Both the position numbers and the translations under genes were made by a program. This document shows, piece by piece, positions 48,092-63,669 of a DNA stretch of 64,000 nt. The stretch's first letter is position 1, and every line of letters begins with the position of its first letter. Source of the stretch: a virus (Duplodnaviria > Caudoviricetes); IMG/VR virus record IMGVR_UViG_3300010998_000026, positions 1 through 64,000 of that record. One strand, 5' to 3'. Under the pieces are notes generated by a model, which did no database searches, had not been told where the DNA came from, and worked only from the letters and a program-made list of their open reading frames with translations.

Positions 48092-48105
48092 ATATTTATT
48101 TTATT

Positions 48106-48142
48106 ACTAATAAAAGAGGGAAACCTCTTTTATTAGTTTTTT
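48106..48142 (+). terminator. Intrinsic terminator
   Basis: ACTAATAAAAGAGG-GAAA-CCTCTTTTATTAGT plus T tract. Confidence 0.8.
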
Positions 48143-48153
48143 GAGGTGATATT

Positions 48154-48357: not shown

Positions 48358-48369
48358 GGAGGGAATAAT

Positions 48370-50322
48370 ATGGATATGATTGATATTATTCTCGCAAGAG
48401 CAAAGTCTTTTACGGGTGAAACAGCAACATTAGTAAGCCAAGCGCAGGCCGCAATGAGTGATGCTAATGATATTGTTAATAGATTAGAAGCTATTGAACA
48501 AAATGCGTCAGATGCTAGTGAAGCAGCAAGCGCGGCCGCAGGTGAATTAGCAGAAATTAAAGCAGATTTTGAGGCCGCGGCAACCGCTGTTGTGGCTGAA
48601 CAACTTGGAACAACAGTTGAAGATGTTGCTGATTTAAAATCAAGAACAACTACGTTAGAAAGTCAAATTGCTAATGCTGGTGGGACAGTAACGGTTACTG
48701 ACGCAAATACTTCCGCAGCAAAAATTAGACAAGCAAGCGTAACAAAAAATGGTACTACTACTAATTATATAGTAGAAAAAAATTATACTAGTGAAGGAAC
48801 CAATGAAGATGGCTCTATGACTTAGAAAGCCATTAAGACTTATGTTGAAAATGTAAAAAATAATTTACAATCTCAAATTAATTCTAGCGGCGGCAATAGT
48901 GGTGGAACCTCTAATCTTGGTTCTAATAATGCAGGCCAAATGGTAGTTATTGGTTCTGATGGGAATATTACTGCAAGTACCACTACAGAACAAGCCTTAA
49001 TTGAACTACTTCTACGTACTGGTACATATTAGGCGCGAGATGCAGTAGGTTTAAATATTGATTATGAAAATAAATCTGTTGGGCGCACACAAGAAGCGAC
49101 ATCTAATACTAATTTTACTGATTACTTAATGTATAAACGTATGCGTTGTAATGTAGCAGATGATGGTACTATTACTGCTTTCTATGGAGATAATAATTAT
49201 AGAGAAGATGGCTCTAATGGGTAGGTAATGGTTTATCAACCAAAATTTTATTATCAGCGCGTTCCAATTAATACTACCAATGGCTTAATGGGTAAAGTTA
49301 TTCATAAAGAATCATTAATTATTTCTCCAATTGCTTAGTCAGGATTTAAACTTCATCCAGCTTTTATTGATAATGCAGGAAATGAATTAGAATATATTCT
49401 ATTATCTGCTTACGAAGGCTCTGCTTATGATACTTCTGCGAATACATATCTTACTACAGACGTAAGTGGAATTAATTTTTCAGAAGATAAATTATCTTCA
49501 ATTGCAAATGTTCAACCTATTAGTGGTAAAAATAATGCTTTAACAATTGATAAAGCAGAACAACTCGCTAGAAATCGCGGTGAAGGTTGGCACATTGAAA
49601 CAATGCAAACTCGTAGTATTGACTAGATGTTAAGTATTATAGAATATGGTACTTTAAATCTTCAAAATGCAATTGAAAACGGCGTATGTAGTATTAATAA
49701 TGCTTATGATAGAAACTATGCAAATAATACAGGTTCTACCGCGGCATTGGGTAATAACTCTGGCGCGGCAGAAAGTAGTGTAAATACAATGTTAAATACT
49801 ACATATAATACAAATGGTAAGCGTTGTATCTCTTATCGCGGTGAAGAAAATCTATTTGGTAATATTTGGAAATTCATTGGCAATATAAATATTTCAGGTA
49901 ATGGTGTTCAATAGGGCGGTATTCCATATATTTGTACAAATTCTAATTATTCAACTACTATTACAGACGACTATAAAAGTGTAGGCTTCTGTCTCCCCAA
50001 TAATAGTGATTGGATTTCTGGTATGGGTTATGGTAATGAAAAATATGACTGGGTATTTTTACCCGCAGAAGCAAGTGGGGCCAATAGCGCAACACCAGTA
50101 GGAGATAGCATTTGGGTTACTACAAATCTAAATGGTGTTAATTATGTTGCTCATGGTGGTAATTGGTTATTCCAGCAAAAAGATGGTATATTTTATTATG
50201 CTTGCGATAAAAACCCAAGTTATTATGCTGCACCTTTTGGCGCGCGTCTTGTTTATATTCCTACTAAAAATTCTATCCATAATAATAATTATGCTTTATG
50301 GCAAAGTAAAATAGGAGGTTGA
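48370..50322 (+). CDS. Tail/virion protein with C-type-lectin/FGE-like C-terminal region (~650 aa, code 15)
   Basis: Fragments 48370, 49627 and 50023 in one frame; VMVYQPKFYY, LHPAF, YRGEENLFGNIW motifs. Confidence 0.8.
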
Positions 50323-51468: not shown

Positions 51469-51543
51469 GCGGGCGTAGTTCAACGGACAGAACATAGTCC
51501 TTCTAAGTCTACAATCTCAGTTCGATTCTGGGCGCCTGTACCA
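51469..51543 (+). tRNA. tRNA-Arg(TCT)
   Basis: Cloverleaf; loop CTTCTAA; TTCGATT; CCA. Confidence 0.9.
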
Positions 51544-51903
51544 AAGTTCCTATTACGCCTCTTTACAATGCGCACCCAATAGGACATTTTATTAAAGGTT
51601 TCTTTTATTCTCGCCTTTCCATGGATAAGTAGAATAAACGTCGGGGCTAATTATGGTCTGCGTGAATGACCGCCATGAGTTCATAGCCATGTAAGTTAAT
51701 CCGGAGTAATACTATGACGTAGGGCAACTTTTACGATAATGGAAGTTGTTAGTGGAGAATACCAGCTATCAATGGCTCGGTTTATCTTCGATATAGATAT
51801 GACTTTGTAATTTCAAGAGGAAATTGCTATCCATACTAAATTACGGTTATACATTTTAAGACCCAATCTTAAATTTAATACTAAAATTTAGTATGGATAT
51901 TAT

Positions 51904-51932
51904 TTGACTTTTCTTTAAAATTCTGATATAAT
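51904..51932 (+). promoter_or_regulatory. sigmaA-type promoter
   Basis: TTGACT-17-TATAAT. Confidence 0.8.
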
Positions 51933-51958
51933 AGATATGTAAGGAGGAAGGAAAGAGT

Positions 51959-52075
51959 ATGTATGAACTTGATGATTTTCTCTGTGAACCGAATTGTGAG
52001 GAACTTGAAGAAGAATTTGAAGCTTGGCTTGAGCTTCAAAATCAAGTAGAAGTTAAATATTTGACTTCTTTCTAA
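51959..52075 (+). CDS. Small acidic protein (38 aa)
   Basis: Promoter and purine-rich RBS upstream; MYELDDFLCEPNCEELEEEFEAWL... Confidence 0.55.
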   Translation: MYELDDFLCEPNCEELEEEFEAWLELQNQVEVKYLTSF

Positions 52076-52089
52076 AATTATGATATAAT
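52061..52089 (+). promoter_or_regulatory. sigmaA-type promoter for the RNA cluster
   Basis: TTGACT-17-TATAAT. Confidence 0.8.
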
Positions 52090-52102
52090 AGATATATGAG
52101 AT

Positions 52103-52174
52103 GGGGAGTTAGTTTAGGGGCTAGAATTGCTGCTTTGCACGCAGCGGACACGAGTTCGATTCTCGTACTTTCCA
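52103..52174 (+). tRNA. tRNA-Ala(TGC)
   Basis: GCTGC-TTTGCAC-GCAGC; G3.U70. Confidence 0.9.
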
Positions 52175-52178
52175 TTTA

Positions 52179-52290
52179 AAGGCACATACAGCAAAATCAA
52201 AGATAATCTTTGAATCGCGAGTTCAAATCTCGTCTCGCCCCATTGGGCAAGTAGCATAGTATGGTAATGCAAAAGAATTTTATGTGCCTT
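52179..52290 (+). ncRNA. CAGCAA-scaffold RNA 1 with circularly permuted tRNA body
   Basis: Outer stem AAGGCACATA/TATGTGCCTT; T arm, then acceptor 3' strand, then acceptor 5' strand, then D arm. Confidence 0.75.
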
Positions 52291-52346
52291 GACTTTTTTT
52301 AAAATTATGCTGTAAGTATCGTAAAGAGAAAATATTTTCTCTTTAT

Positions 52347-52422
52347 CGCAGATAGGGCAAACGGTTAAGCCGCGGCGCTCATAACGCTTGAGGAAATGGT
52401 CCAACTCCATTATCTGCGACCA
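52347..52422 (+). tRNA. tRNA-Met/Ile2(CAT)
   Basis: Loop CTCATAA; acceptor CGCAGAT/ATCTGCG; ACCA. Confidence 0.85.
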
Positions 52423-53330
52423 ACGGTTGATACCAGACCGTTAGAAGGTATCCGTTCAAGATGAGAAACATCGACGTAGTGATGTTAGGGCGAAAAGGTA
52501 GAGGCACAATGATGTCAGAAAACCCTGATGCACTTAGAGTCTAGCCCCGCTCAAAGGTGGCAACTGGAGAGCGTATGGTTCCAAAACACCAATAAGTGCG
52601 GCGTAAGCTACCGATGGTACAGGTGCGGTAAGTAAAACCTGTTAAAACCTTATTCACAGGTCGTCAATCATCGTTAGATTGGGATGGCAACCTGATAGCC
52701 AAAGTAATTACTAGTTATCGAAAAAGTGGAAATGAATCGTTTTCACAACTAGTTGTATGGATGTAATGCGAGATTCTCATTACATAACGCTATGGACATG
52801 GCTCCGCCAGGGATGACGGGAAGCGCATAGTATGGTGCCCAAATGCTCAATGTATTAGCTTTTGAAAAGCAAAGCTGGCTTGCAAGCAGCTATACAAGCA
52901 AAGTGAAGAATGGGCTAAATGGAGTTTGAAGAACAGCCAATTAAATCTAGGAGAGACCTAGTATAAATAAGTGAGTCCATTCTGTGAAATGGTTATAAAA
53001 GGCAACGACAGGACGTTAGATTTTCCAAACTAAGCCTTTCAAAAAATGGGATGGGAAAATTAGTGACCTTACACTTAAAAAGGATGCCGAAAAACGGGAT
53101 GGAAGGAAAGTAATGGGTGAAGTCCTTACTGATTGTCGATAAATCAGAAAAGCGGTGGAAGGGCCCTCCGCACCCGTCACAATGTGTAGGTAAATGCGAC
53201 CCGACGGATATGGGGTATGGGTGAAAGCTAACCCATAATTACGATTGCTTGATCAACAGTTGAACGCAGTATGAGTGGATGAATTTCCCTCCCCAGTAGA
53301 GTGACTTCGCGTCTGGGTTATCAAAACGCG
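52422..53330 (+). ncRNA. ~900-nt large structured ncRNA (GOLLD-like candidate)
   Basis: No credible ORF; 5' and 3' hairpin loops complementary (TGATACCAG vs CTGG..TATCA); CGTTCAA/TTGAACG long-range pair; lies between tRNA genes. Confidence 0.55.
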
Positions 53331-53337
53331 CAGTTAT

Positions 53338-53397
53338 GCTCTGATAGTGTAATGGAAAGCACGCCCGGAAGGATTGGTTCGATTCCAATGAAGAGCA
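53338..53397 (+). ncRNA. tRNA-like RNA lacking an anticodon arm
   Basis: Acceptor GCTCT/AGAGC, D arm, T arm ATTGG-TTCGATT-CCAAT, only about 10 nt between the D and T arms. Confidence 0.65.
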
Positions 53398-53548
53398 AAC
53401 AGTTGACACGTATCTGTGTAAAAATGTGAGAAGCAAAGTCGATGAAAAACAAAGATTAAAAGTTTAAAAAAAGTTTGTTATTATTATTGGCGTAATAATA
53501 ACTAGTCGGCGGCGTTTCGCTATTCCGGTGCGCCAACACTGGAATTAT

Positions 53549-53621
53549 GCCCGCATCGAATAATTGGTTAGTTCGTCACCCTTTCAAGGTGAAAATTCCG
53601 GATCGTTCCCGGATGTGGGTA
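53549..53621 (+). tRNA. tRNA-Glu(TTC)
   Basis: TCACC-CTTTCAA-GGTGA; atypical T loop. Confidence 0.85.
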
Positions 53622-53627
53622 TTATAG

Positions 53628-53703
53628 GGTGCATTAGTTTAATTGGTTAAATCCCCAGTCTGTCACACTGGAAACACGAGTTCAAATCTCGTATGCACCG
53701 CCA
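53628..53703 (+). tRNA. tRNA-Asp(GTC)
   Basis: CCAGT-CTGTCAC-ACTGG; GCCA. Confidence 0.9.
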
Positions 53704-53973
53704 TTTGCATCACCTCCTTAATGATGCAACTCTTAACACGAATTTAGCACTTAAACTACCATCGGCACGTCCAAATATCGAAGCAAGTTTCTGAGCAGCC
53801 CTCTTCGAGGCACGTGATATGTGGCTTAGCGGAAAAGAGTATAAATGAAGCGAAGTAAAGTGCAGTGCGCGGCTACACACTATAACAATATGGTGCCTGT
53901 AATGGAGTCAAATGCACCCCTTATAAGGGAGACAACCATAATAGCCCATGCCGAGGGTGTGCTCGGCTTTTAT

Positions 53974-54080
53974 GTGGCAACCAGTAAGCGACCAAAGTAA
54001 TGCTTACGCGGGAGAGTTGTTAGATGTTTTTGCCGACGGGCCGTCTAACACTGTAAGTTCAAATCTTACTTGCTACACCA
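53974..54080 (+). ncRNA. Non-canonical tRNA-like RNA (G3.U70, A73, CCA; enlarged D and anticodon arms)
   Basis: Acceptor GTGGCAA/TTGCTAC-ACCA; T arm GTAAG-TTCAAAT-CTTAC. Confidence 0.65.
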
Positions 54081-54088
54081 TAGCCCAT

Positions 54089-54216
54089 AAGACGGGTCAG
54101 CAATTTTTTTCTTTGAAAATAATTCTGTAAAATTAAGGCGAGGGTTCGATTCCCTCCGTGGTCGGGTGGGCTCCGGCCGCGTGGTGTAGTTGGTCGCATT
54201 AAAAAAGACCGTCTAG
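54089..54216 (+). ncRNA. CAGCAA-scaffold RNA 2 with circularly permuted tRNA body
   Basis: Outer stem AGACGG/CCGTCT; GTA-containing loop hairpin, T arm, closed acceptor, D arm. Confidence 0.75.
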
Positions 54217-54241
54217 TTTATTTTTTTTATATGGTGATAAT

Positions 54242-55186
54242 ATGGCAGAAAACAAATATACCGCAACTGATTTAAAAGAAATGTAGGCATGGCCGCTAGA
54301 AAGAAAAATTCAAGTTTCTTAGACAAGGATTCTTGAATTTGGTGACCATTTTAATGGAAAGATTTTTGTTGCTTTTAGCGGTGGAAAAGATAGTACAGTT
54401 TTACTTGATTTAGTAAGACGTGTATTTCCCGATACTCCTGCTGTTTTTATTGACACAGGCTTAGAATATCCAGAACTAAAAGAATTTGTAAAATCACACG
54501 AAAATACAGAAGTTATTAGACCTAAGAAAACGTTTAGACAAGTAATTGAAGAATTTGGCTATCCAATTGTAAGTAAAAAAATTGCTGGCTATGTTGCTAC
54601 TGCAAAACGAAATCCTAATTCCGCACGCGCAAAATTTTTGAGCGGTGAATATGATAGTAAAATATTTGGTTTTGGTGATGGTAAATGGAATTTCTTAGTT
54701 CAAGCACCATTTAAAATTAGTGATTATTGTTGTGATGTAATGAAAAAACAACCAAATCATCACTATTCAAAAGAAACTGGTCGTTTTCCAATTCTTGGAA
54801 CATTAGCATCTGAATCTATTGCTCGTCGTAATGAATGGATGCGTAGCGGTTGTAATTTATTTGATAGCGATAAACCTACATGTAAGCCATTATCTTTCTG
54901 GACTGATAATGATATTTTAGAATATTTAGTAAAATATAATATTCCATATTGTCCTTTATATGGTGATATTATAAAAGATAAAAAAGGTAATTGGACTACA
55001 ACAGGTATTAAAAGAACTGGTTGTATTTTTTGTGGTTTTGGTGCACATTGTGAAAAATGTCCAAATCGTTTTCAACAATTAAAGGTATCACATCCAAAAA
55101 TTTGGGAATATTGTATGCGTCCTTGGGAAGAAGGCGGCCTAGGATTAAAAGAAGTATTAGATTATATTAATGTCCCTTATGAATAA
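54242..55186 (+). CDS. Phosphoadenosine phosphosulfate (PAPS) reductase family protein (code 15)
   Basis: VAFSGGKDSTVL PP-loop, DTGLEYPE, CCDVMKK, RTGCIFC; 2 N-terminal TAG. Confidence 0.85.
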
Positions 55187-55197
55187 GTGGTGATATA

Positions 55198-56880
55198 ATG
55201 AGAGCAGCAGTTTATTGTGGTACGAGAAATTTATATAAAAATATGGTAATTGCGGCGAAATCATTACTTATTCATTCTAATGTAGAAAAAATTTATTTTC
55301 TTATTGAAGATGATATTTTTCCTTATGAAGTACCATAGGGAATAGAATGTATAAATATAAGTAATTAGAATTATTTTAGAAAGAATGGCCCAAATTATAA
55401 AAGTTCTTGGACTTATATGGCACTAATAAAAGCAGCCTTTACTAAAATTTTTCCATAGTTAGATACAATTTTATCATTAGATGTTGATACAATTATAAAT
55501 GAGAATATATCTAATTTATGGGATATAGATATATCTAATTATTATGTCGCGGCAGTTCCTGAACCAGATAAAACATATGATGACTTTACTTATATTAATG
55601 TTGGCGTTGCTTTATTTAATTTAAAAAAAATGAGAGAAGATAAAAAAGATGATGAAATTATTTATCTTCTTAATTCAATAAAATTAGGTTATCCAGAGCA
55701 AGATGCAATTAATATTTTATGTCAAAATTATATTTATAATTTGCCAGCAGATTATAATATAAATAATTATACATAGAAAGCCTCACATAGAAAAATTATT
55801 CATTATGCTGCAATAAAAAAATGGCAAGACTTGCCGCTTATTTCTTATTATGAAAAAATGGAATTAGTAAGAAATAAAGAAGATAATTTTAATTTAGATA
55901 TTATAATTCCGACTTATAATAATGAATAGGGATTAATTACTACTTTAAAGAGTATTCCAAATCGAGAAGAAATTACAATTAATATTATTGATGATGCTTC
56001 TCCAATTTCTTATAAGAAGAAAATATTTTCATTATTTCCATATGTAAATTGGATAACATTAAAGAAAAATTCTGGCCCTGGTGTTGCTCGTGAAATAGGT
56101 ATAAAAAATACTAGTAATCCATATCTTATGTTTATTGATACTGGTGATTATTTATATTCAAATGAAGTTCTTGATAGAATATTAAATGATATAAAAAATA
56201 ATACAATGCCAGATATATATTTATATCAATGGTATAATGAAGAAAATAAACAATTTAGTACAGATTGGAATCCATTAATGCACGGGCATATTTATAAGCG
56301 AGAATTTTTAGAATTATATGATATTGATTTTTGTAAAGAATCTTCTTACTCTAATGAAGATATAGGTTTTAATCATACTTGTGATATGATTTTAAATCAT
56401 ATTGAGATGTATGATACTACAGAACATAAAGTATTTTATGAATATCCAATTTATTTCTATACTTATGATGCTAATTCTATTACTCATGCAGGTGGAAAAG
56501 AATATTATTATACAAAACAAATTGCTGGATTAGCGGCTAATGCTAAACATGTAATAGATAATGCAGAAAAAAATAATATAAATATATATGTATTATTAAA
56601 TGAATTAAATGTATTATTTGTTGGATTATATGAAAGTTTTCTATTATGCGCGAAAAAACGGCCTGATTTATTATATGATAATTGGTATTATATTAGGCAA
56701 TTTTATTTTGAAGTATATTAGAAATATGAAAGTAAAAGTGAAGATGCGTTAGGTATTGCTATTAGTTAGAAAATGAAGCATCTATTACGAGCAGGGATAA
56801 GAAATATAAATGTAAAACGCTTTATTTCTAATTTAAAACAATTTGAAAATTTACCAGATTATTATTTGACATAGATATAA
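55198..56880 (+). CDS. Fused GT8 + GT2 glycosyltransferase (~560 aa, code 15)
   Basis: GT8: LSLDVDTI, YINVGV, PEQDAIN, IIHYA; GT2: IIIPTYN, IIDDAS, NSGPGVAR, FIDTGD; single frame through TAG. Confidence 0.85.
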
Positions 56881-56894
56881 ATTTATGTTATAAT
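56866..56894 (+). promoter_or_regulatory. sigmaA-type promoter
   Basis: TTGACA-17-TATAAT. Confidence 0.8.
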
Positions 56895-56976
56895 AAATAT
56901 GTAAGAAAGAGAAAAGGTCGCTCTTCTTACTACCAATCATAAATTAACTCCGTCATCATACCTTCGGGTATGATAT

Positions 56977-57047
56977 GGCCGATTCGCCAAGTGGTATGGC
57001 AGGTGGCTGTTAACCACCCCAGGGGAGTTCAATTCTCTCATCGGCCG
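56977..57047 (+). tRNA. tRNA-Asn(GTT)
   Basis: GGTGG-CTGTTAA-CCACC. Confidence 0.9.
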
Positions 57048-57127
57048 CTCTCACCTGAGCAAAAGTGGTGACTAAACCGATGTGCGGCTAGCAACCTACT
57101 GCTATTTTATTATGTGAGGTATATAAT

Positions 57128-57667
57128 ATGAGTGATGTACGTTTAAAGATTTTACCCCCTTGGACTATTGTAATTCGTAAACTTGAAGCTCTATTTGATG
57201 GTGACCCTCAGATTGCTTTCAATTGTGATTTTTCTGGTAGTCATCCTACTGTAATACTTGCTTGCAATAATGGCGATAAGGTTGCGGCTTTACTACAGAT
57301 TCTTCCAGAAGAAGTTAATTTTGGTAATATTTCTCTAAAGGTTATTATTGATGGCACACCTAGTAATCGCGCTTTTACAAGTAAGGTTGAACTATTTGAT
57401 ACAGCTTTTAGCGGCAATCCTGCTTATGCTTATTCTGTATGTCCTGCAGAAGAAGGTTATATGTGGATTGGTACAACTTATGTAGTATTTAATAATTGCG
57501 TGGTACAATTTGCCGCAGATAATCTGAATGATTGCCACGGTATTATTAGTACCCTATACGAAACTATTGCTAATGAACTTCTTACTGGCCCAGCAACAGC
57601 AGGTGTATTTTATAATACTAATGTTGAACGTGCTGGTCTTGGTATGCCATTAGGAGAGTGGCCCTAA
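57128..57667 (+). CDS. Hypothetical phage protein
   Basis: RBS GAGG; 179 aa, no TAG. Confidence 0.8.
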   Translation: MSDVRLKILPPWTIVIRKLEALFDGDPQIAFNCDFSGSHPTVILACNNGDKVAALLQILPEEVNFGNISLKVIIDGTPSNRAFTSKVELFDTAFSGNPAYAYSVCPAEEGYMWIGTTYVVFNNCVVQFAADNLNDCHGIISTLYETIANELLTGPATAGVFYNTNVERAGLGMPLGEWP

Positions 57668-57689
57668 TTAACGCGGCGAAAGCCGCTAT

Positions 57690-57764
57690 CGAGCATTAGC
57701 ACAGTTGGTTTAGTGCGCGCGCCTGATAAGCGCGAGATGCTTCGTTCGAATCGAAGATGCTCGA
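57690..57764 (+). tRNA. tRNA-Ile(GAT)
   Basis: CGCGC-CTGATAA-GCGCG. Confidence 0.9.
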
Positions 57765-57859
57765 CTACCTTTATTAAAGATACTCTAGCTTATTGAGTTA
57801 AGTAGGTAAACTACTTTCTCGTTATAACGGAAACTAAAATAAAAAAAGGAAGAATAACT

Positions 57860-58096
57860 ATGACTGAGACTCAAATAAAAGAAAAAAGGAAGAATGGAAG
57901 AGATGCGCCACAAGACAGAGTCCCACGTGACGAATTACTATATCCCACGAAGGAGACATCATTCGATCCTCCTGTTCGCTCTATACTTGATCGTGTGCCT
58001 AATTCGAGTAAGCCAGTAAAGTATAAGTGCCTAGACCCTGATTATGTTAAATACAAGCGTAGTATTATAACTGGAACTCAAATAAAAGAAGAATAA
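57860..58096 (+). CDS. Possible small basic protein with repeated T.TQIKE motif
   Basis: ORF track; weak RBS; could be non-coding. Confidence 0.35.
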   Translation: MTETQIKEKRKNGRDAPQDRVPRDELLYPTKETSFDPPVRSILDRVPNSSKPVKYKCLDPDYVKYKRSIITGTQIKEE

Positions 58097-58166
58097 TGCT
58101 CTCTTCTCTTTCTACCCTCGTAAGAGATCACTTTTATATCTAAACCTATTGGGTTAAGTAGGCAAT

Positions 58167-58240
58167 GCGGCATTAGTGTAGTGGTAACACCTTTGCCCTC
58201 CAAGCAAATTTCGCCCGTTCAAATCGGGTATGCCGCTCCA
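58167..58240 (+). tRNA. tRNA-Gly(TCC)
   Basis: TTTGC-CCTCCAA-GCAAA; TCCA. Confidence 0.9.
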
Positions 58241-58245
58241 AGCCG

Positions 58246-58321
58246 AGATACGTCAGCAATTTTTCTTCTCAAGCGGTATTTTGAAGCACCGGGTCGGCTC
58301 CGGGAAGATAAGCGTATCTAG
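58246..58321 (+). ncRNA. CAGCAA-scaffold RNA 3
   Basis: Outer stem AGATACG/CGTATCT-AG; shares the GGGT.GGCTCCGG segment with RNA 2. Confidence 0.7.
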
Positions 58322-58400
58322 TTTTAATAGACTTGCCCACGCCTCTTAACAATGCGTACCAGGGGAGCACGTGGCTACGACGGTTAATAGTAGCATTCAT

Positions 58401-58534
58401 GCTGGTGTGGTGGAATGGCAGACACCTCAGACACTCGGTGTCCAGTGACTTTCGCTGGGGCAGCACCAGTGCCGAGTACCATTAAAATCTGATGCTCTTT
58501 GAGCGTGCCGGTTCGAGTCCGGCCACCAGCACCA
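58401..58534 (+). tRNA. tRNA-Leu(TAA) interrupted by a 49-nt insert (58433-58481) in the anticodon loop
   Basis: TCAGA-C[insert]TTAAAA-TCTGA; otherwise canonical type II Leu tRNA with ACCA. Confidence 0.85.
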
Positions 58535-58541
58535 TTTTTGA

Positions 58542-58964
58542 AAATAGGTACTTTCGTAACGAATCAAGGATATGGTAAGAGTGCTGTTTGATGAGCTGTA
58601 CCAAAAGACTTGGGCGTCAAAAGGCAGAAGTTAAATGGTATTGAAAACCAGCCTATTGTTGGCTTGGGTAAGAGGACCCTGTAAGTAGTTGATAGTGGAA
58701 CAATAACCTATGTAAAATAATTAGTGCTACGAAGCCAATCAGCTAAGTCCTTGTGGAGATGTACGCTGAAACAAGAGCAATCAAAAATTCCGAGGAAAAA
58801 TCCTAAGACAGTGTTGAGATTGCTCACGCGGGAAAAGCAGCAGTAGTAAATGGAGTTAGATGAACAGCTAATTATTGTGTAAATAGGTGCAGAATGATGA
58901 ATCTGAGGTAAGGTGAAATCCCTATGCCCGCAATGTTAAATGGAATTTGACGAACAGCCTATTT
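58542..58964 (+). ncRNA. ~420-nt structured ncRNA of unknown family
   Basis: Ends pair (AAATAGGT..TTCGTAA / TTGACGAA..GCCTATTT); no ORF; between two tRNA genes. Confidence 0.5.
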
Positions 58965-58970
58965 ACGTAT

Positions 58971-59050
58971 GGCCCGCTGGCGAAATTGGTTTACGCAGCG
59001 CACTCAAAATGCGTGCCTTCGGGTTCTCAGTTCAAATCTGAGGCGGGCTA
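58971..59050 (+). tRNA. tRNA-Leu(CAA)
   Basis: GCGCA-CTCAAAA-TGCGT; variable arm with TTCG loop. Confidence 0.9.
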
Positions 59051-59054
59051 CTAT

Positions 59055-59127
59055 GTCCAATTGGCGCAACGGCAGACGCGCATGGCTAAGGACCATGTTT
59101 TTGAAGGTTCAAATCCTTTATTGGACA
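59055..59127 (+). tRNA. tRNA-Leu(AAG), A34 anticodon, short variable loop
   Basis: CATGG-CTAAGGA-CCATG; acceptor GTCCAAT/ATTGGAC-A. Confidence 0.8.
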
Positions 59128-59131
59128 TTAT

Positions 59132-59160
59132 TTGACTTTTCTCAAAATCTATGATATAAT
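59132..59160 (+). promoter_or_regulatory. sigmaA-type promoter
   Basis: TTGACT-17-TATAAT. Confidence 0.8.
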
Positions 59161-59191
59161 AAATATATAAAAGGAAGAAAGAGGTAAAAGT

Positions 59192-59506
59192 ATGTCCTGC
59201 GTCTGTGAAAAAAATACTCCTCGTAATGGCCCATATTATCCATTAGGTATTAAAAAACGTATTAAATATGATAAAATTGTAAATTATCATTATGAAGGTC
59301 ATGATGGGCATGGTGGCTATACTTGTGATTATATTCCAGTTGAAACAGAAGCAGAAGTTTATCTAAGAGTAGATTATCCAATACTATATGAAACAAATGG
59401 TGGCGGATATAATAAAAGATTATTTCATTGTCCACTATGTGGACGTTATTTTCCGCCAGTAAGTCAATGGGAAAAAGAACAGGAAAAATATGAATTAAAT
59501 ACTTGA
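59192..59506 (+). CDS. Zinc-ribbon hypothetical protein
   Basis: CVC...HCPLCGR; RBS GAGG. Confidence 0.75.
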   Translation: MSCVCEKNTPRNGPYYPLGIKKRIKYDKIVNYHYEGHDGHGGYTCDYIPVETEAEVYLRVDYPILYETNGGGYNKRLFHCPLCGRYFPPVSQWEKEQEKYELNT

Positions 59507-59531
59507 CTTTCTTCCAAATTTATGTTATAAT
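59503..59531 (+). promoter_or_regulatory. sigmaA-type promoter directly upstream of the large ncRNA
   Basis: TTGACT-17-TATAAT. Confidence 0.8.
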
Positions 59532-59556
59532 AAATATGTAAGAAAGGGAAACAAAG

Positions 59557-60144
59557 AACTCTCTGTTTAGCAATTACGAACCAAGTGAAGATGTGTTAGC
59601 CACACAGCTTGGGCTACCTGGATAACATCGCAGACCTTGATGGGATACTTTCAAGTATGCGACGCGAAACTAGTAATAGTTAGCGATAAGGGAGAAACTC
59701 CAAATGTTAAGGGTAGGCGCCGATTACTTCGCTTGTAAATGCACGATTCCTCACGGCGGCACAATAGAAAGCTAGGTTAAGAGCCAGGCCGAATCCAGAT
59801 AAGGTGTTGGGGTGGTAGCCAATACAACCTCTGGAAATAACCACAAGTCGCTACTGTCGGTGAAAGTCAGAAATGGCATATAAGTGAGGTTTACGGTTGG
59901 AGTAGCTCAAGACAGCAAATGAATATGTTATTAAAAAGAAGCGTTTTAATTCTTTTCATATTGCTGAATGGCTTGGGTGAAACTTGAAGGTAGACAATCC
60001 TTCCTATTCTCGGCGCGAAAGCGCGGCTATTAGATGGTATGAGGTCGCTACTCATGCTACAGCCTAATGGTCAATAGTAGCATAATATACAAGAAGAAGA
60101 TAATTGGTATGGCGAAGGTCACGCTAATTGTTAAACAGAGAGTT
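59557..60144 (+). ncRNA. ~590-nt large ornate ncRNA, probably ROOL
   Basis: 20-bp terminal stem AACTCTCTGTTTAGCAATTA/TAATTGTTAAACAGAGAGTT; internal GAGTAGC/GCTACTC pair; size and phage tRNA-array context match ROOL. Confidence 0.65.
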
Positions 60145-60167
60145 TTCTATACAGAAAGGAGTATTAA

Positions 60168-60506
60168 ATGAATTATATTATTAATCCAATGTGGTTCTAC
60201 TGGCTAAATGTTTGTGATGGTTTTAAAATATTTTTAATTGTATTTTCAGTGCTATATGGTATTAGTATTATAGTTACATTAATTGAATTCGTAGTAGAAA
60301 ATAATAAATTCCCAAAATGGAAAATTATTTTTTACATAATTCCTATAATTTTAATTTTATTAGCAATTTTTATTCCTAATAAAACTACGTTAATTGAGAT
60401 GCAGGTTGCAGAATTAGCTACTAAATCTAATATTGATTATACTATTGAATCAATTAGAGAAATTATTAATTATTTGTTAGAAACAATTAATAATTTTAAT
60501 AGTTGA
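60168..60506 (+). CDS. Membrane protein (2 TM)
   Basis: Hydrophobic segments; RBS AAAGGAG. Confidence 0.75.
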   Translation: MNYIINPMWFYWLNVCDGFKIFLIVFSVLYGISIIVTLIEFVVENNKFPKWKIIFYIIPIILILLAIFIPNKTTLIEMQVAELATKSNIDYTIESIREIINYLLETINNFNS

Positions 60507-60531
60507 CATTGTATAAAATTTATAGTATAAT
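60503..60531 (+). promoter_or_regulatory. sigmaA-type promoter
   Basis: TTGACA-17-TATAAT. Confidence 0.75.
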
Positions 60532-60615
60532 AATATTGCGAGGAGCAGGCGGAAGTACGAAAAGAAGGCCGCAATAATTGTTAAACAAAGTGTCTTTTAT
60601 ATTGAAAGGAGCAAT

Positions 60616-60945
60616 ATGAAAATTTACATTTACGTAGATGATATTCGTGATGATGATACTTATTATAATATGAATCTTTATCCCGAGTGGCGTCTAATCA
60701 TCTGTCGCGATTATAATCAGACTGTACAAGTTCTCACTCAACATCTTACAGATGAAATTTTCATTGACCTTGACCATGATCTTGGTTTTGATGATGATAA
60801 TTATGAATATTCTGGTTATGATATTTGTAAGTTTATTATTCAACACCGAATTCCACTTGCCGGTTTTCACATCCATAGTATGAATCCTGTTGGTGTACAG
60901 AATATGCGGCAACTACTTACCCATTATGGATATAAGGAATATTAA
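60616..60945 (+). CDS. Cyclic-phosphate-processing receiver-domain protein
   Basis: IYVDDIR, IDLDHDLG, SGYDICKFI and HIHSMNPVG motifs. Confidence 0.75.
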   Translation: MKIYIYVDDIRDDDTYYNMNLYPEWRLIICRDYNQTVQVLTQHLTDEIFIDLDHDLGFDDDNYEYSGYDICKFIIQHRIPLAGFHIHSMNPVGVQNMRQLLTHYGYKEY

Positions 60946-60948
60946 TAT

Positions 60949-60977
60949 TTGACTTCTTTCTAAAATTATGTTATAAT
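60949..60977 (+). promoter_or_regulatory. sigmaA-type promoter upstream of the Arg-Sup-Gly tRNA unit
   Basis: TTGACT-17-TATAAT. Confidence 0.8.
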
Positions 60978-61117
60978 AATTATGTTAAGAGCGTGGGACA
61001 TATAGCGGCGACTCTTAACATTAGCTAAACGTGAAGGGAACAAGTTACCTTAGAAGACTTGCACGTCAGTGGACCTGTAACGGGAGGAGAAGGTCGTAAA
61101 TATTCTCCCTCCACTAT

Positions 61118-61193
61118 CTCTCGTTCGTCTAATGGACTAGGACAATAGACTACGGATCTATTAATGAGGGTTCAAATCCTTCACGGGAGACCA
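61118..61193 (+). tRNA. tRNA-Arg(ACG)
   Basis: ATAGA-CTACGGA-TCTAT; ACCA. Confidence 0.9.
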
Positions 61194-61195
61194 TT

Positions 61196-61272
61196 ACGAC
61201 GATTACAGCAAATTTTTATAATAATATAAGCAATAATCTTTTAAATTATGTAGCTAATTTTAAATCGTCGTG
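61196..61272 (+). ncRNA. CAGCAA-scaffold RNA 4 (Lys-UUU-like anticodon stem-loop)
   Basis: Outer stem ACGACGATT/AATCGTCGT; internal ATAAT-CTTTTAA-ATTAT. Confidence 0.7.
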
Positions 61273-61283
61273 TTATTTATTAT

Positions 61284-61378
61284 AGCCCCTTAGCTCAATT
61301 GGTAGAGCACCGGTCTCTAAAACCGTGATATGCCTCTGAAGCAGGTTGTTCTGGGTTCGACTCCCAGAGGGGTTGCCA
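61284..61378 (+). tRNA. Amber suppressor tRNA (anticodon CTA) with a 19-nt extra arm
   Basis: CCGGT-CTCTAAA-ACCG; acceptor AGCCCCT/AGGGGTT-GCCA; T arm CTGGG-TTCGACT-CCCAG. Confidence 0.9.
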
Positions 61379-61383
61379 TAGTT

Positions 61384-61461
61384 TAGACCATTACAGCAAT
61401 TATTTAATGAATTAAAGAAAATATTTTTGCTACAAATCCTTTCTCAAATTAAATGGTCTAG
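61384..61461 (+). ncRNA. CAGCAA-scaffold RNA 5 (Ser-GCU-like anticodon stem-loop)
   Basis: Outer stem TAGACCATT/AATGGTCTA; internal ATTT-TTGCTAC-AAAT. Confidence 0.7.
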
Positions 61462-61467
61462 TTTTAT

Positions 61468-61538
61468 GCGGCTATAGTGTAGCGGTAACATTGATGCTTG
61501 CCATGCATCCATCACCAGTTCGAGCCTGGTTAGCCGCT
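61468..61538 (+). tRNA. tRNA-Gly(GCC)
   Basis: GATGC-TTGCCAT-GCATC. Confidence 0.9.
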
Positions 61539-61547
61539 TTAAAATTG

Positions 61548-61577
61548 AATAACTAGGAATAATTTCCTAGTTATTTT
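61548..61577 (+). terminator. Probable intrinsic terminator
   Basis: AATAACTAGGAA-TAAT-TTCCTAGTTATT plus T. Confidence 0.65.
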
Positions 61578-61594
61578 GTTTCTAAGGAGATTTT

Positions 61595-61837
61595 ATGCGA
61601 AAAGGTAGGCAAATTGATCATAATTGGGATATACGAAGATATAAAGGTGATTGTGCCTTTTATGCCTATTGTAAATGTGGATTTTATTATCCTTGTCATA
61701 AAATATCTCATAGTACAGATATTTTTAAAACAGAAATTGACTTAAATAAAATATATCATTATTGTCCCAATTGCGGCGCACATAAAAAATGGTATAATGA
61801 TATTCCAAGAAAAATTAATAAATTTCAATGGGAATAA
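61595..61837 (+). CDS. Zinc-ribbon hypothetical protein
   Basis: CKCG...YCPNCG; RBS AAGGAG. Confidence 0.75.
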   Translation: MRKGRQIDHNWDIRRYKGDCAFYAYCKCGFYYPCHKISHSTDIFKTEIDLNKIYHYCPNCGAHKKWYNDIPRKINKFQWE

Positions 61838-61841
61838 TTAA

Positions 61842-61870
61842 TTGACATTATATTAAAATTATGTTATAAT
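61842..61870 (+). promoter_or_regulatory. sigmaA-type promoter
   Basis: TTGACA-17-TATAAT. Confidence 0.8.
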
Positions 61871-61895
61871 AAATATGTTGAAAGGGGAGAAAAAG

Positions 61896-62069
61896 ATGAC
61901 TAAGGTTGGAGATAAAGTTAGAATTATCTTTATGTCTGGTGAACCACAGTATACTGGAAAAGAAGGAATTGTTAAATATATTGATGATGCGGGACTAATT
62001 CATGGAACTTGGGGCGGTTGTGCTATTGTCCCAGGTGAAGATGAATGGGAAATTATTAATGGGAAGTGA
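61896..62069 (+). CDS. DUF4314-like small protein
   Basis: VGDKVRIIFM..EPQ..G.EG.V..IDDAG.IH..W...AIVPGED. Confidence 0.7.
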   Translation: MTKVGDKVRIIFMSGEPQYTGKEGIVKYIDDAGLIHGTWGGCAIVPGEDEWEIINGK

Positions 62070-62219
62070 TTGACGCATCAGGGTAGCGTCCGCTGTGGCA
62101 ATCGTCACCGGCCTCGGGCAAACAGAGGTCTATGCGTAAGGGTCATATGAGCATTTTAATTGCACGCACCGAAGGTGGTCCGCACATCACCTGGGGTTCA
62201 AATCCCCCACTTTCCACCA
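62061..62219 (+). ncRNA. 159-nt tRNA-like RNA (G3.U70, A73, CCA) with a ~100-nt internal domain
   Basis: GGGAAGTG/CACTTTCC-ACCA; GACGC/GCGTC D-like arm; GGGG-TTCAAAT-CCCC T arm. Confidence 0.65.
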
Positions 62220-62289
62220 AGGCACGCTGGTTCTGCCTATAAGACCAGTCATCGGGTACAGGTCGATGTAAAATATAATTTGTACGTTA

Positions 62290-62364
62290 GCGGGTATAGC
62301 CAAGCGGTATGGCATCACACTTTTAATGTGAGCACGTTGGGTCCGACTCCCAATACCCGCACCA
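62290..62364 (+). tRNA. tRNA-Lys(TTT)
   Basis: TCACA-CTTTTAA-TGTGA; ACCA. Confidence 0.9.
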
Positions 62365-62367
62365 TAT

Positions 62368-62442
62368 ACCTCACTAGCATAATGGTAGTGCATTTGATTC
62401 TTAATCAAAGTTGTCAGGGTTCAAGTCCCTGGTGAGGTACCA
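62368..62442 (+). tRNA. tRNA-Lys(CTT)
   Basis: TTTGA-TTCTTAA-TCAAA; ACCA. Confidence 0.9.
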
Positions 62443-62539
62443 GTGGCGGCGGCGCCCGTCAGCAGTGTCTGATCAACACAAAACCGACCCATGTGCGTTC
62501 CGCAACTTCACATGTAAAGCTAAAAAAGTTGCGACGCGT

Positions 62540-62615
62540 GCCTTCGTAGCTCAATTGGTAGAGCACTTCTATGGTAAAGAAGAGGTAGTCAGTTCAAATC
62601 TGACCGTAGGCTCCA
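62540..62615 (+). tRNA. tRNA-Thr(GGT)
   Basis: CTTCT-ATGGTAA-AGAAG; TCCA. Confidence 0.9.
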
Positions 62616-62619
62616 ATAT

Positions 62620-62692
62620 GCACGCATAGCTCAGTTGGGAGAGCACCACGTTTACACCGTGGGTGTCGGCGGTTCGAGTCCGTCTGTGTGCA
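62620..62692 (+). tRNA. tRNA-Val(TAC)
   Basis: CCACG-TTTACAC-CGTGG. Confidence 0.9.
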
Positions 62693-62837
62693 TTATTAAA
62701 TATATGACCAACACGCGAACAACCTGTTCTATTTAAAATGCCAGTCTACTTGTTGCCGAAAGTAGTGCGGGAGCGGCAACTCCCAAAAGGTGAAGCGCGG
62801 CCACCATAAGAGTACGCCGGACACCTCGCCCGTTGAG

Positions 62838-62977
62838 GAGGGAAATGTAGAGTAGAAACCCACCATTCTCTACTACCAGAACATAAGGGCATATGGAATG
62901 GTAAATTGTGGGATTTATGGGAATGTGGTGTATGGGCATTGCTTCTTGGTTGAGGTTCGATTCCTCACTTTCCCTCA
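62838..62977 (+). ncRNA. 140-nt tRNA-like RNA with replaced anticodon domain
   Basis: GAGGGAAA/TTTCCCTC-A acceptor; TGAGG-TTCGATT-CCTCA T arm; GTAGAG/CTCTAC arm. Confidence 0.55.
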
Positions 62978-62978
62978 T

Positions 62979-63049
62979 AGGAGTTTAGGATAATAGTAGT
63001 CTACTTGTCTCCAAAACAAGTGGTGGGTGTTCAAATCACTCAACTCCTG
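62979..63049 (+). tRNA. tRNA-Trp(CCA)
   Basis: CTTGT-CTCCAAA-ACAAG. Confidence 0.85.
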
Positions 63050-63056
63050 CTTATAT

Positions 63057-63128
63057 GTGGTCGGTAGTTTAACGGTAAAACCTCGGATTGTGGCTCCGAA
63101 GACGCAGGTTCAACTCCTGTCCTTCCAA
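63057..63128 (+). tRNA. tRNA-His(GTG), acceptor stem with mismatches
   Basis: TCGGA-TTGTGGC-TCCGA; G-1. Confidence 0.8.
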
Positions 63129-63138
63129 TTTTATTTAC

Positions 63139-63214
63139 GCCGAGGTAGCTCAGCAGGAAGAGCAGGAGACTGAAAATCTCCGTGCCGGTGGTTCAATTCC
63201 GCCCCTCGGCACCA
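63139..63214 (+). tRNA. tRNA-Phe(GAA)
   Basis: GGAGA-CTGAAAA-TCTCC; ACCA. Confidence 0.9.
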
Positions 63215-63218
63215 ATAC

Positions 63219-63290
63219 GCGCCGAATACTCGTCGGCCGGGTGAAGCACTGCAAATGCTTTGTTAGTAGGTTCAACTCCTACTCGGCGCT
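63219..63290 (+). tRNA. tRNA-Cys(GCA)
   Basis: AAGCA-CTGCAAA-TGCTT; U73. Confidence 0.85.
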
Positions 63291-63308
63291 TAATAAGGAG
63301 GAATTATT

Positions 63309-63566
63309 ATGTATAATGTGGATAGAATCAATGAATGGAAAGAAAAAATTACTAATCATTTCTTTTATCAATTTTTACAAAATCTAAAAACCGTTGACGA
63401 ACCAAAAATTGGCTCATCCGCGTGGGAAGATGTATTTGAAGCAACTTGTAAACAGGAAGGCGAAGAAGAATTATATAATGAATATCGTGATTTTCCCCCT
63501 GTAGATAAAAATGCTATTTATGAATTTTTACAAATTAAAACAATTGACTTTCGGAGAAAATTGTGA
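63309..63566 (+). CDS. Hypothetical protein
   Basis: RBS AAGGAGG; ORF track. Confidence 0.75.
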   Translation: MYNVDRINEWKEKITNHFFYQFLQNLKTVDEPKIGSSAWEDVFEATCKQEGEEELYNEYRDFPPVDKNAIYEFLQIKTIDFRRKL

Positions 63567-63572
63567 TATAAT
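63544..63572 (+). promoter_or_regulatory. sigmaA-type promoter
   Basis: TTGACT-17-TATAAT. Confidence 0.75.
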
Positions 63573-63595
63573 ATAAATATAAAGAATAGATACTT

Positions 63596-63669
63596 ACAGG
63601 ATGTGGTGTAATGGTAACATGTCGCATTTGGGATGCGAAGTAGCGGTTCGAATCCGACATCTTGTACCA
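63596..63669 (+). tRNA. tRNA-Pro(TGG)
   Basis: TCGCA-TTTGGGA-TGCGA; ACCA; short T stem. Confidence 0.85.

Follow-up and report, generated by a model that had tools for sequence, protein, structure and literature searches.

A predicted hairpin copying the tRNA-Gln anticodon loop is conserved in a family of phage amber-suppressor tRNAs

The window analyzed here is a 64,000-nucleotide (nt) stretch of DNA from a gut virus of the Caudoviricetes, namely the initial 64 kb of a record (IMGVR_UViG_3300010998_000026) that is 76,141 bp long and rated 43% complete. At positions 61284 to 61378, it carries a tRNA gene with anticodon CUA, tRNA(CUA), whose variable region can form a second hairpin with the anticodon loop of a tRNA-Gln. 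The tRNA is a phage amber suppressor, and UAG stands for Gln in this phage. Comparative analysis showed that the predicted hairpin is conserved by selection across one phage suppressor-tRNA family; the finding is well beyond chance, and the gene is part of a widespread family. We put at roughly 50% the probability that the extra arm recruits or instructs the host enzyme that charges tRNAs with Gln, a proposed working principle that is unprecedented for a tRNA.

Structure of the suppressor tRNA and its extra hairpin

ARAGORN identified 61284..61378 on the + strand as a 95-nt tRNA(cta) gene with exact ends and a cloverleaf with a 7-bp acceptor stem and a 5-bp T stem. Membership in the Rfam tRNA family (RF00005) was clear, with a score of 55.4 bits against a gathering score of 29 and a match to model positions 1 to 71 of 71. 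The Rfam alignment assigned some 20 additional nt to the variable region and flagged 27:43 as a nonstandard pair. The parts of the gene are as follows.

61284..61378, + strand: amber-suppressor tRNA gene with encoded CCA (ARAGORN, Rfam tRNA, sequence)
61284..61290, + strand: 5' strand of the acceptor stem, AGCCCCU, partner 61368-61374 (ARAGORN bracket structure, sequence)
61293..61308, + strand: D arm, GCUC-AAUUGGUA-GAGC (ARAGORN structure, comparison with Escherichia coli tRNA-Trp)
61310..61326, + strand: anticodon arm, CCGGU-CUCUAAA-ACCGU (sequence, Rfam, ARAGORN structure)
61327..61350, + strand: variable region of 24 nt containing the extra hairpin (ARAGORN structure, arm anatomy)
61331..61343, + strand: predicted extra hairpin UGC-CUCUGAA-GCA, a copy of the Gln anticodon loop (sequence, family conservation, stem covariation)
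61336..61338, + strand: CUG in the extra loop, in the place of anticodon positions 34-36 (sequence, family loops)
61351..61367, + strand: T arm, CUGGG-UUCGACU-CCCAG (Rfam, ARAGORN structure)
61375..61375, + strand: discriminator G73 (sequence; G73 in 34 of the 37 strict family members described below)

The acceptor strands AGCCCCU/AGGGGUU give A1-U72, G2.U71, and C3-G70. The anticodon loop CUCUAAA (61315-61321) contains the anticodon CUA at 61317-61319 and has the canonical 7-nt form expected of an amber suppressor, with U33 and a purine at position 37. The extra hairpin consists of TGC (61331-61333), the loop CTCTGAA (61334-61340), and GCA (61341-61343). Its CUG is flanked by U, as by U33, and by A, as by A37, which is the form of a tRNA-Gln anticodon loop. 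An imperfect extended helix, GAUAUGC/GCAGGUU, is also possible in the variable region, with seven layers including one A.G. Position C27 is mismatched with U43 unless it pairs with G61345 beyond the extra hairpin. Deletion of 61326-61344 (TGATATGCCTCTGAAGCAG, 19 nt) leaves 76 nt and sets ACCG+G opposite CCGGU. A first-pass annotation had described the CUA anticodon, A1-U72, and G73, a hairpin TGC-CTCTGAA-GCA with a 7-nt loop like that of Gln(CUG), and a 19-nt segment whose removal restores a 76-nt tRNA with a perfect CCGGU/ACCGG stem; all of these can be read directly from the gene. Whether seen as an insert at 42/43 or as a long variable arm with C27.U43 mismatched, the topology is the same, a fifth helix atop the anticodon stem, and the sequence cannot distinguish the two views. 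The single-sequence fold of the tRNA was no better than that of shuffled sequences (z = -0.92) and was thus uninformative, so that significance must come from comparison.

Conservation and covariation of the hairpin

The first relatives were 10 loci around homologs of a neighboring glycosyltransferase (43-51% identity). A long tRNA(CUA) of 87-96 nt was found in five of them, in every case with (C/U)UGA in the extra loop, and a MAFFT alignment of the long tRNA(CUA) genes showed UGA to be invariant in the extra region. Together with the window, these relatives have the extra loops CUCUGAA (three, including the window), CUGACA, GCUGA, and CUUUGAAC. Viral contigs were then scanned with the pattern CTCTAAA-N22-37-GGGTTCGAMTCCC, in which the anticodon loop and a common T arm are fixed and the variable region is free. 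The scan yielded 96 loci, in 64 of which ARAGORN called a tRNA(cta) 84 nt or longer, representing 49 distinct sequences. The family is common in animal-gut viral contigs; these 64 loci came from one narrow scan.

A strict motif was defined as a hairpin whose stem has at least 2 bp and whose 7-nt loop reads N-U-(C/U)-U-G-A-N. This hairpin was present in 37 of the 49 distinct long tRNA(CUA) sequences, and (C/U)UGA in 43 of 49, whereas 2000 shuffles of the same variable regions gave a mean of 0.18 strict matches and a maximum of 3. The survey of suppressor tRNAs for the same arm, which the first-pass annotation had proposed as a check, thus found the insert loop to be conserved. The strict loops were CUCUGAA in 21 sequences, UUCUGAG in 9, CUUUGAA in 3, CUCUGAC in 2, and UUUUGAG and UUCUGAA in 1 each. 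The loop triplet was CUG in 33 of 37 and UUG in 4 of 37, that is, the two Gln anticodons, with U before and A after, and it was carried on 13 different stem pairs.

Twelve of the 49 sequences lack the strict motif. Three of these (L057, L068, and L073) are one base off the pattern and retain CUG, and three others (L058, L118, and L074) contain CUGA or UUGA in other loop forms. The remaining six have a different body and A73, with G1-C72 in L070, L098, L140, and L142, U1-A72 in L125, and U:C at this pair in L063; they look like other kinds of long-armed suppressors.

With the variable region and the segments specified by the scan pattern trimmed away, the bodies grouped into 34 clusters at 90% identity and 20 at 80% identity, and the strict motif occurs in 25 and 13 of these, respectively. 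At 70% identity, a single family of 46 stood apart from the class-II-like CUA tRNAs with G1-C72 and A73. By this comparison, the sequences form what is apparently one old family, in which the stems drift by compensation and the loop is held.

Covariation was assessed in an alignment of 45 sequences, comprising the 42 of 49 scan sequences with YUG in the arm, the window, and two relatives; because members were picked for YUG in the arm, this is a set chosen for the motif. The extra stem was paired in 86.4% of cells, and all five of its pairs change on both sides. Among the three well-populated pairs, one is GC in 20 sequences, CG in 15, UA in 4, and UG in 2; another is CG in 30, GC in 7, AU in 1, and UA in 1; and the third is UA in 11, GC in 7, CG in 5, UG in 4, and AU in 2. 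No shuffle among 500 attained the whole-structure values, and pairing fell from 90% to 39-52% when the partners were slid. RNAalifold predicted the hairpin with its 7-nt loop unaided and left 1:72 and 27:43 open, the latter being unpaired in 14 of 42 family rows and the former in 22 of 44 rows.

The geometry of the arm was compared in 38 strict members including the window. The hairpin starts 1 nt after position 43 in 25 of 38, or 0-1 nt after it in 32 of 38 if the extended helix is allowed, and in 34 of 38 it is separated from the T stem by 5-7 nt, as many as an ordinary variable loop has. The extra stem is 2 bp long in 16 members, 3 bp in 13, 4 bp in 5, and 5 bp in 4, and reaches up to seven layers, as in the window, when one mismatch is allowed. 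The 27:43 combination is C:U in 11, G:C in 11, C:G in 5, G:U in 5, A:U in 3, A:C in 2, and C:C in 1.

The motif is also specific to this family. Of 11 long arms from Ser, Leu, and Tyr tRNAs that these phages also encode, none contains (C/U)UGA, and the strict motif is absent from the G1-C72, A73 bodies and the U1-A72, A73 body among the non-strict sequences above. The same scan pattern applied to one genome per prokaryote species gave 108 loci with 23 long tRNA(cta) genes; four of these have the strict motif, whereas it is lacking from the remaining 19, most of which have a G-C first pair.

Meaning of UAG, proposed Gln charging, and competing explanations

The in-frame TAG codons of the window lie largely in the genes that require the suppressor, upstream of the tRNA array.

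8922..50322, + strand: late structural and tail genes requiring the suppressor (open reading frame [ORF] cover, in-frame TAG, gene matches)
51469..63669, + strand: array of 21 tRNA genes (ARAGORN)

When TAG was read as sense, ORFs of 100 aa or more covered 71.6 kb instead of 43.3 kb, and fragments fused into long genes, among them an ORF of 2782 aa with 29 TAG codons. Of the 28 + strand ORFs in the window with 150 aa or more, 22 contain in-frame TAG codons, about 141 in all (summed by hand). The tail protein encoded at 48370-50319 was aligned, with X in place of each TAG, to the best 120 of 7447 homologs. At four of its six TAG sites, Q was found in 120, 115, 85, and 120 of these 120; the other two sites are variable among the best 120, and W is absent among the residues listed at all six. 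When four genes of the window were compared with the ten related loci, 83 codons of the relatives aligned with a window TAG, of which 19 were CAA, 6 CAG, and 9 TAG. The Gln residues of the homologs and the alignment with CAA and CAG indicate that TAG means Gln. ARAGORN labels the gene tRNA-Pyl, a label that follows the anticodon only. The body of tRNA-Pyl is compact, with a 3-nt variable loop and a small D loop, and this identity was rejected, as TAG aligns with Gln and the variable region and D loop here measure 24 and 8 nt.

The body of the tRNA resembles more than one type. Positions 8-42 match annotated tRNA-Trp in 5414 of 5426 E. coli genomes, with an identity of 94.3% in almost all cases; the match spans only 37% of the gene. 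In one E. coli genome (H21), tRNA-Trp was listed at 97.1%, one base of 35 off the common allele, the others being listed at 94.3%. Crude identity to the phage's own tRNAs was 64% for Trp, 73% for Gln, and 75% for Thr(GGU), which does not permit a choice between a Gln and a Trp origin. The other family members have different D arms that are not Trp-like. The Trp-like D and anticodon arms described in the first-pass annotation are thus real for this gene and do not extend to the family.

Several acceptor features are shared with tRNA-Gln. The determinants published for tRNA-Gln identity are the anticodon (U35 and G36), the acceptor stem, the first pair, the discriminator, and the 10-25 pair, with losses of up to 10^5-fold, and an indirect pathway of GluRS2 and amidotransferases inspects U1-A72 versus G1-C72 (the accessible text of PMC9976931). 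In the strict set, 1:72 is U:A in 11 of 37, A:C in 9, A:U in 4, U:U in 4, U:C in 3, and another combination in 6, some of these being ARAGORN frame shifts; G73 is present in 34 of 37 and G2:C71 in 32 of 37, and 3:70 is C:G in 22 and G:C in 11. The family therefore shows, at the level of predicted pairs, acceptor features that overlap the published identity regions, namely a weak or mismatched 1:72, G2:C71, and G73. The window has the weak 1:72 pair and G73, as do the record's own tRNA-Gln(UUG) and tRNA-Trp(CCA), both with A1-U72 and G73. G2:C71 and G3:C70 are identity elements for E. coli glutaminyl-tRNA synthetase (GlnRS), and the window departs from both with G2.U71 and C3-G70. In its true anticodon, U35 is present and G36 is replaced by A; the full CUG stands in the extra loop.

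No match to PF00749, PF03950, or PF02637, that is, to the GlnRS/GluRS core, the GlnRS C-terminal domain, or the GatB tail domain, was found in the record or in the searched relatives, two of which are complete (179.6 and 169.3 kb). As no phage synthetase was found, host enzymes must charge the tRNA. Four genome bins contain motif tRNAs, namely a Bacillota metagenome-assembled genome (MAG), a Mollicutes MAG (163,874-bp contig), an Erysipelotrichaceae MAG, and one more. Three of the four encode GatB without GlnRS, and one encodes GlnRS above the cut-off without GatB; these bins may not be the hosts, as the contigs may be phage DNA binned by chance.

Taken together, these results suggest the following route to Gln charging. 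The CUA anticodon lacks the G36 that Gln-charging enzymes read, and the spare loop would present U35 and G36 with their neighbors to the host enzyme, offsetting this loss. The enzyme could be GlnRS, or a nondiscriminating GluRS followed by GatCAB, and a phage-encoded synthetase would play no part. The tRNA would be captured and charged as a Gln tRNA, and its true anticodon would read UAG on the ribosome. The spare loop might enter the anticodon pocket of the enzyme or merely tether it. Three observations point to Gln charging: the copied anticodon belongs in every case to the amino acid that TAG encodes, long-armed CUA tRNAs with class-II-like bodies lack the motif, and synthetases are known to bind anticodon-like hairpins in mRNAs. 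Leu and Ser synthetases ignore the anticodon, and anticodon-independent charging of this kind would fit the absence of the motif from the class-II-like tRNAs if those are of the Leu or Ser type. The first-pass proposal that a Gln-like arm serves Gln charging thus stood as regards the meaning of TAG, the conserved loop, the covarying stem, and the specificity of the motif; the charging step is what we infer. Somewhat short of an even chance is our estimate for the more specific claim that two anticodon jobs are split between two loops, CUA for the ribosome and a spare CUG or UUG for the Gln-charging enzyme.

If this is true, the arm would be a means of portable codon reassignment without alteration of a host synthetase, which may extend to other reassignments, and it would explain how phages using genetic code 15 get their suppressors charged. 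The tRNA would be the first known to us in which the identity and decoding loops are physically separate, and it would be relevant to genetic-code change and to the design of suppressor tRNAs for synthetases that read the anticodon. A conserved copy of the Gln anticodon loop would also give a concrete answer to a question raised by a survey of recoded phages, in whose accessible text synthetases for the suppressors are rarely found, host GlnRS is supposedly repurposed, and charging is an open question (10.1101/2021.08.26.457843).

Among the closest known systems are the tRNA(CUA) genes of code-15 phages (crAss-like, Lak, phAss-1, Agate, and others; 10.1101/2021.08.26.457843, PMC10607447, PMC12386605), which, as far as the accessible portions of these papers go, are alike in their tRNA array, TAG-rich late genes, and TAG = Gln, and likewise have no phage synthetase, so that host charging is presumed. 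Those portions mention no extra arm, whereas the present family has a second hairpin with a Gln anticodon loop. The parts seen of the phAss-1, zeta-crAss, and jumbo-phage papers mention suppressor tRNAs and not the variable arm, and what is available of a study of 213 tested phage suppressors mentions no such arm (10.1101/2025.10.30.685624). A full-text literature search, which covers few subscription journals, returned no paper on a tRNA with a second, cognate anticodon loop.

The first-pass annotation had invoked su7, which we take to be the name of the E. coli amber-suppressor tRNA-Trp. According to the excerpted text of PMC2965240, this tRNA-Trp(CUA) is charged by GlnRS. It shares the Trp-type D and anticodon arm with CCA changed to CUA, A1-U72, and G73 and ends up with Gln, but it has the normal 76 nt, and GlnRS accepts it via U35 and the acceptor end alone. 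In the present gene, the hairpin adds a full CUG loop, and other members of the family do without the Trp-like arms. The Gln-accepting tRNA-Gln(CUA) of the supE type has a weak 1:72, G73, and no extra arm, and it depends on residual GlnRS affinity for the mutated anticodon. It shares the CUA anticodon with the present tRNA and is recognized by E. coli GlnRS (10.1101/2025.10.30.685624, accessible part).

The synthetases of class II, nev-, and allo-tRNAs read the presence, length, or orientation of the variable arm and not its loop sequence, and the arms of class II tRNAs are placed with two nt before the arm and three after it. The gene has a long variable-arm stem-loop of this general kind (24-nt region, hairpin, and stem covariation). 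It does not have the Leu, Ser, or Tyr placement, as the hairpin of the strict members begins 0-1 nt after position 43 (32 of 38) and is followed by 5-7 nt (34 of 38), and a class II identity is further disfavored by the separate clustering of the bodies at 70% identity and by TAG meaning Gln rather than Leu, Ser, or Tyr. An allo-tRNA structure (8/4 or 9/3) was rejected because of the 7-bp acceptor and 5-bp T stems. A fifth arm in the variable region is nevertheless shared with class II tRNAs (Leu, Ser, bacterial Tyr, and Sec), nematode nev-tRNAs (PMC3333845), and allo-tRNAs (PMC5389517), and in Ser, nev-, and allo-tRNAs, as described in the available portions of these sources, the arm rather than the anticodon sets identity and the anticodon is free to change. 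In the present family, by contrast, the loop sequence is the conserved part and equals the anticodon loop of another tRNA. Mimicry of this sort has precedents outside tRNA: the thrS operator of E. coli and yeast synthetase mRNAs contain hairpins with a copy of the anticodon loop that are bound by the matching synthetase (PMC9976931, PMC6542539), and the poliovirus internal ribosome entry site with GlyRS (PMC3384309) and viral tRNA-like structures (10.1101/2023.07.08.548219) are synthetase-recognized mimics outside the normal arm position, in each case according to the partial texts of these sources. These mimics are parts of mRNAs or of viral genomes, where they function in regulation or 3'-end charging, whereas the present one lies inside a working tRNA beside a different, true anticodon.

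Several observations weigh against Gln charging through the arm. The extra stem is short and variable and starts near position 43, which keeps the spare loop near the tRNA core. GlnRS spans the whole inside of the L and reaches the anticodon about 5 bp further down, and class I synthetases leave the variable region facing solvent; with this geometry, a one-for-one replacement of the anticodon arm is hard to picture. A search of viral contigs with a D-arm pattern gave 36 loci, 33 of which have a tRNA(CUA) of 73-78 nt, none with the arm. The arm is thus not generally needed by phage tRNA(CUA), and normal phage tRNA(CUA) is reported to be charged by E. coli GlnRS (10.1101/2025.10.30.685624, in the part seen). 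Ten loci (L059, L071, L087, L101, L102, L117, L131, L133, L134, and L139) have a normal tRNA(CUA) of 75-78 nt, with the acceptor features U1.C72, G2, G3, and G73, next to the long one, so that phages carry two kinds of suppressor side by side. One complete relative (G001, the record of locus L040; 179,585 bp) is TAG-recoded, with an ORF cover that rises from 135.6 to 233.0 kb and an in-frame TAG in its glycosyltransferase homolog, yet none of the 22 tRNAs that ARAGORN found in it has a CUA anticodon, and no suppressor was detectable. A low-threshold ARAGORN candidate in this genome was rejected, as it is not a tRNA by Rfam. Finally, the GluRS of Bacillus subtilis is said to read mainly a modified U34 (PMC9976931, accessible text), and if the hosts use an enzyme of this type, the C at that place in 33 of 37 spare loops is unexpected.

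Other explanations of the hairpin were weighed against Gln charging. It is possible, though unlikely, that the hairpin binds another partner recognizing tRNA-Gln anticodon loops, for which a tRNA-modifying enzyme, a factor timing the phage's code switch, and a tRNA-Gln-directed host nuclease or regulator, with the arm as bait, are candidates. A conserved loop on a stem of varying length would suit a partner that needs only the loop and no fixed geometry toward the acceptor end, and a PF20274 protein, whose family name suggests an RNA-repair setting, is encoded 340 nt upstream. However, tblastn searches with 10 neighboring ORFs found no protein conserved adjacent to the suppressor across relatives, a nuclease bait within an essential tRNA would destroy that tRNA, and another partner does not itself explain why the mimicked anticodon always matches the amino acid of TAG. 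We give a low probability to the arm being a generic long variable arm, either structural or an anti-determinant against TrpRS or other synthetases on a Trp-like or Gln-like body, with a loop that is inherited and not read. Its location in the variable region is that of class II arms, the D and anticodon arms of this member are Trp-like, and an armless E. coli tRNA-Trp with CUA is charged by GlnRS (PMC2965240, excerpted text); a generic arm would, however, hardly keep its loop in 37 of 49 sequences, against 0.18 in shuffles, across bodies with less than 80% identity and with compensatory stems, and the class II arms of the same phages have no such loop (0 of 11). The chance is slim that the RNA folds in two ways, so that either hairpin could serve as the anticodon arm, with CUG shown to the synthetase and CUA to the ribosome, or even with decoding of both CAG and UAG. 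The tandem arrangement of the hairpins, with a linker of 0-1 nt in 32 of 38 members and 5-7 nt thereafter in 34 of 38, would allow this, as would a hinge pair 27:43 that is unpaired in 14 of 42 rows and four members whose 5-bp stem and 7-nt loop equal a true anticodon arm in size. Yet 29 of 38 stems have only 2-3 bp, too few to make a decoding arm or to keep the distance to the acceptor end constant, the canonical 1-nt spacing between the D stem and the CUA hairpin is retained, and the single-sequence fold (z = -0.92) lends no energy-based support.

The first-pass annotation had offered as an alternative that the 19 nt are a removable, intron-like insert whose excision yields an active 76-nt suppressor and switches the code on, which now seems highly improbable. 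In its favor, the deletion restores the CCGGU/ACCGG stem, and the members read from the CCGGU-stem subfamily have a G after the hairpin. In other relatives, by contrast, 27:43 pairs directly (G:C 11, C:G 5, G:U 5, and A:U 3 of 38), which leaves nothing to be removed, and the length and flanks of the arm vary, so that there is no common excisable unit, and a conserved, covarying hairpin with a fixed loop is unlike a spacer. Group I introns are far longer than 19 nt, and to our knowledge bacteria lack bulge-helix-bulge splicing. RNA evidence came from contigs of four metatranscriptome runs of sheep and bovine gut; such contigs cannot show mature ends, strand, or level, and the RNA libraries may contain DNA. 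An X18 contig (61278-61379, 1 difference) and an X19 contig (61280-61378, 2 differences) span the tRNA with its arm and have different flanks, and many abundant contigs of the RNA libraries match 61291-61325 only and then continue as ordinary tRNAs. No joint skipping 61326-61344 was listed in the four runs, which, with contigs only, is weak evidence. Near-identical copies of the tRNA thus exist in other samples with no sign of excision, and the contigs that span the gene retain the arm. There is equally little to be said for the hairpin as a decaying, functionless relic of a duplicated anticodon arm. The two loops are one base apart (CUCUAAA and CUCUGAA), but in the members read, nothing in one hairpin's stem recurs in that of the other, and 13 body clusters at 80% identity retain the loop while their stems change in a compensatory manner, a pattern that indicates purifying selection.

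Neighboring genes and related suppressors

Seven further tRNA genes, including the tRNA-Gln(UUG), lie just past the end of the window, bringing the record to 28 tRNA genes with a single tRNA(CUA). Among the tRNA genes, 54242-56880 (+ strand) encodes a phosphoadenosine-phosphosulfate-reductase-like protein (phrog_424, 2 TAG) and a fused GT8+GT2 glycosyltransferase (8 TAG). The PF20274 protein (cyclic-phosphate processing receiver domain; E 1.3e-17, phrog_1479), encoded 340 nt upstream of the suppressor, is the product of a 109-aa ORF at 60616-60945 (+ strand) with a homolog of 51% identity in relative L040; its family name hints at RNA-end repair within the tRNA array. For a 179-aa protein encoded in the array at 57128-57667 (+ strand), identity to the counterparts in six relatives is 84-90%, compared with about 42-57% for the other proteins of these relatives. 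Pfam gave one match to it, below the cut-off, PHROG and Atlas gave none, and its single-sequence AlphaFold model was poor (pLDDT 37.7). The motif (G)ACCATTAC(A/G)(A/G)C occurs at 61190-61209 and 61387-61397, after tRNA-Arg and after the suppressor, and also just downstream of the suppressors in L044 and L045; ACCATTACRRC is not clearly enriched in the window (12 matches versus 3.66 expected, 12 being reached in 1 of 100 shuffles).

Searches for the tRNA itself and for other suppressors gave further observations. A search of GenBank phages brought up generic tRNA matches and nothing closely related to the tRNA region, and the exact 25-base D and anticodon arm query of this tRNA had no match in viral contigs. 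A query with the same D arm and a long gap found one 88-nt tRNA(CUA), which was rejected as unrelated, its loop lacking the motif. In a 607-kb phage contig (L039, 135-300), an 88-nt tRNA(CUA) with a GC-rich long arm and an AAAA loop without YUGA is directly followed by a 77-nt tRNA(CUA). Some matches to the scan pattern, of the form CTCTAAA ... GGGTTCGAATCCC, are a repeat found in at least eight large viral contigs (L061, L077, L079, L081, L084, L091, L122, and L128) that ARAGORN did not call as tRNA(cta).

A corresponding scan for TGA suppressors returned mostly true tRNA-Sec and tRNA-Leu. It also contained a 94-nt tRNA(UCA) on a viral contig (L166, 111-204, - strand) with a 7/5 cloverleaf, G1-C72, and U73, whose 6-bp variable arm has a 5-nt loop, AUCCA, that contains the Trp anticodon CCA. 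This single case is a possible Trp counterpart of the Gln arm. In the tRNA array of a related phage (L042, 14976-15329), ARAGORN identified a tmRNA gene with the tag peptide GAPYAAKQLN.

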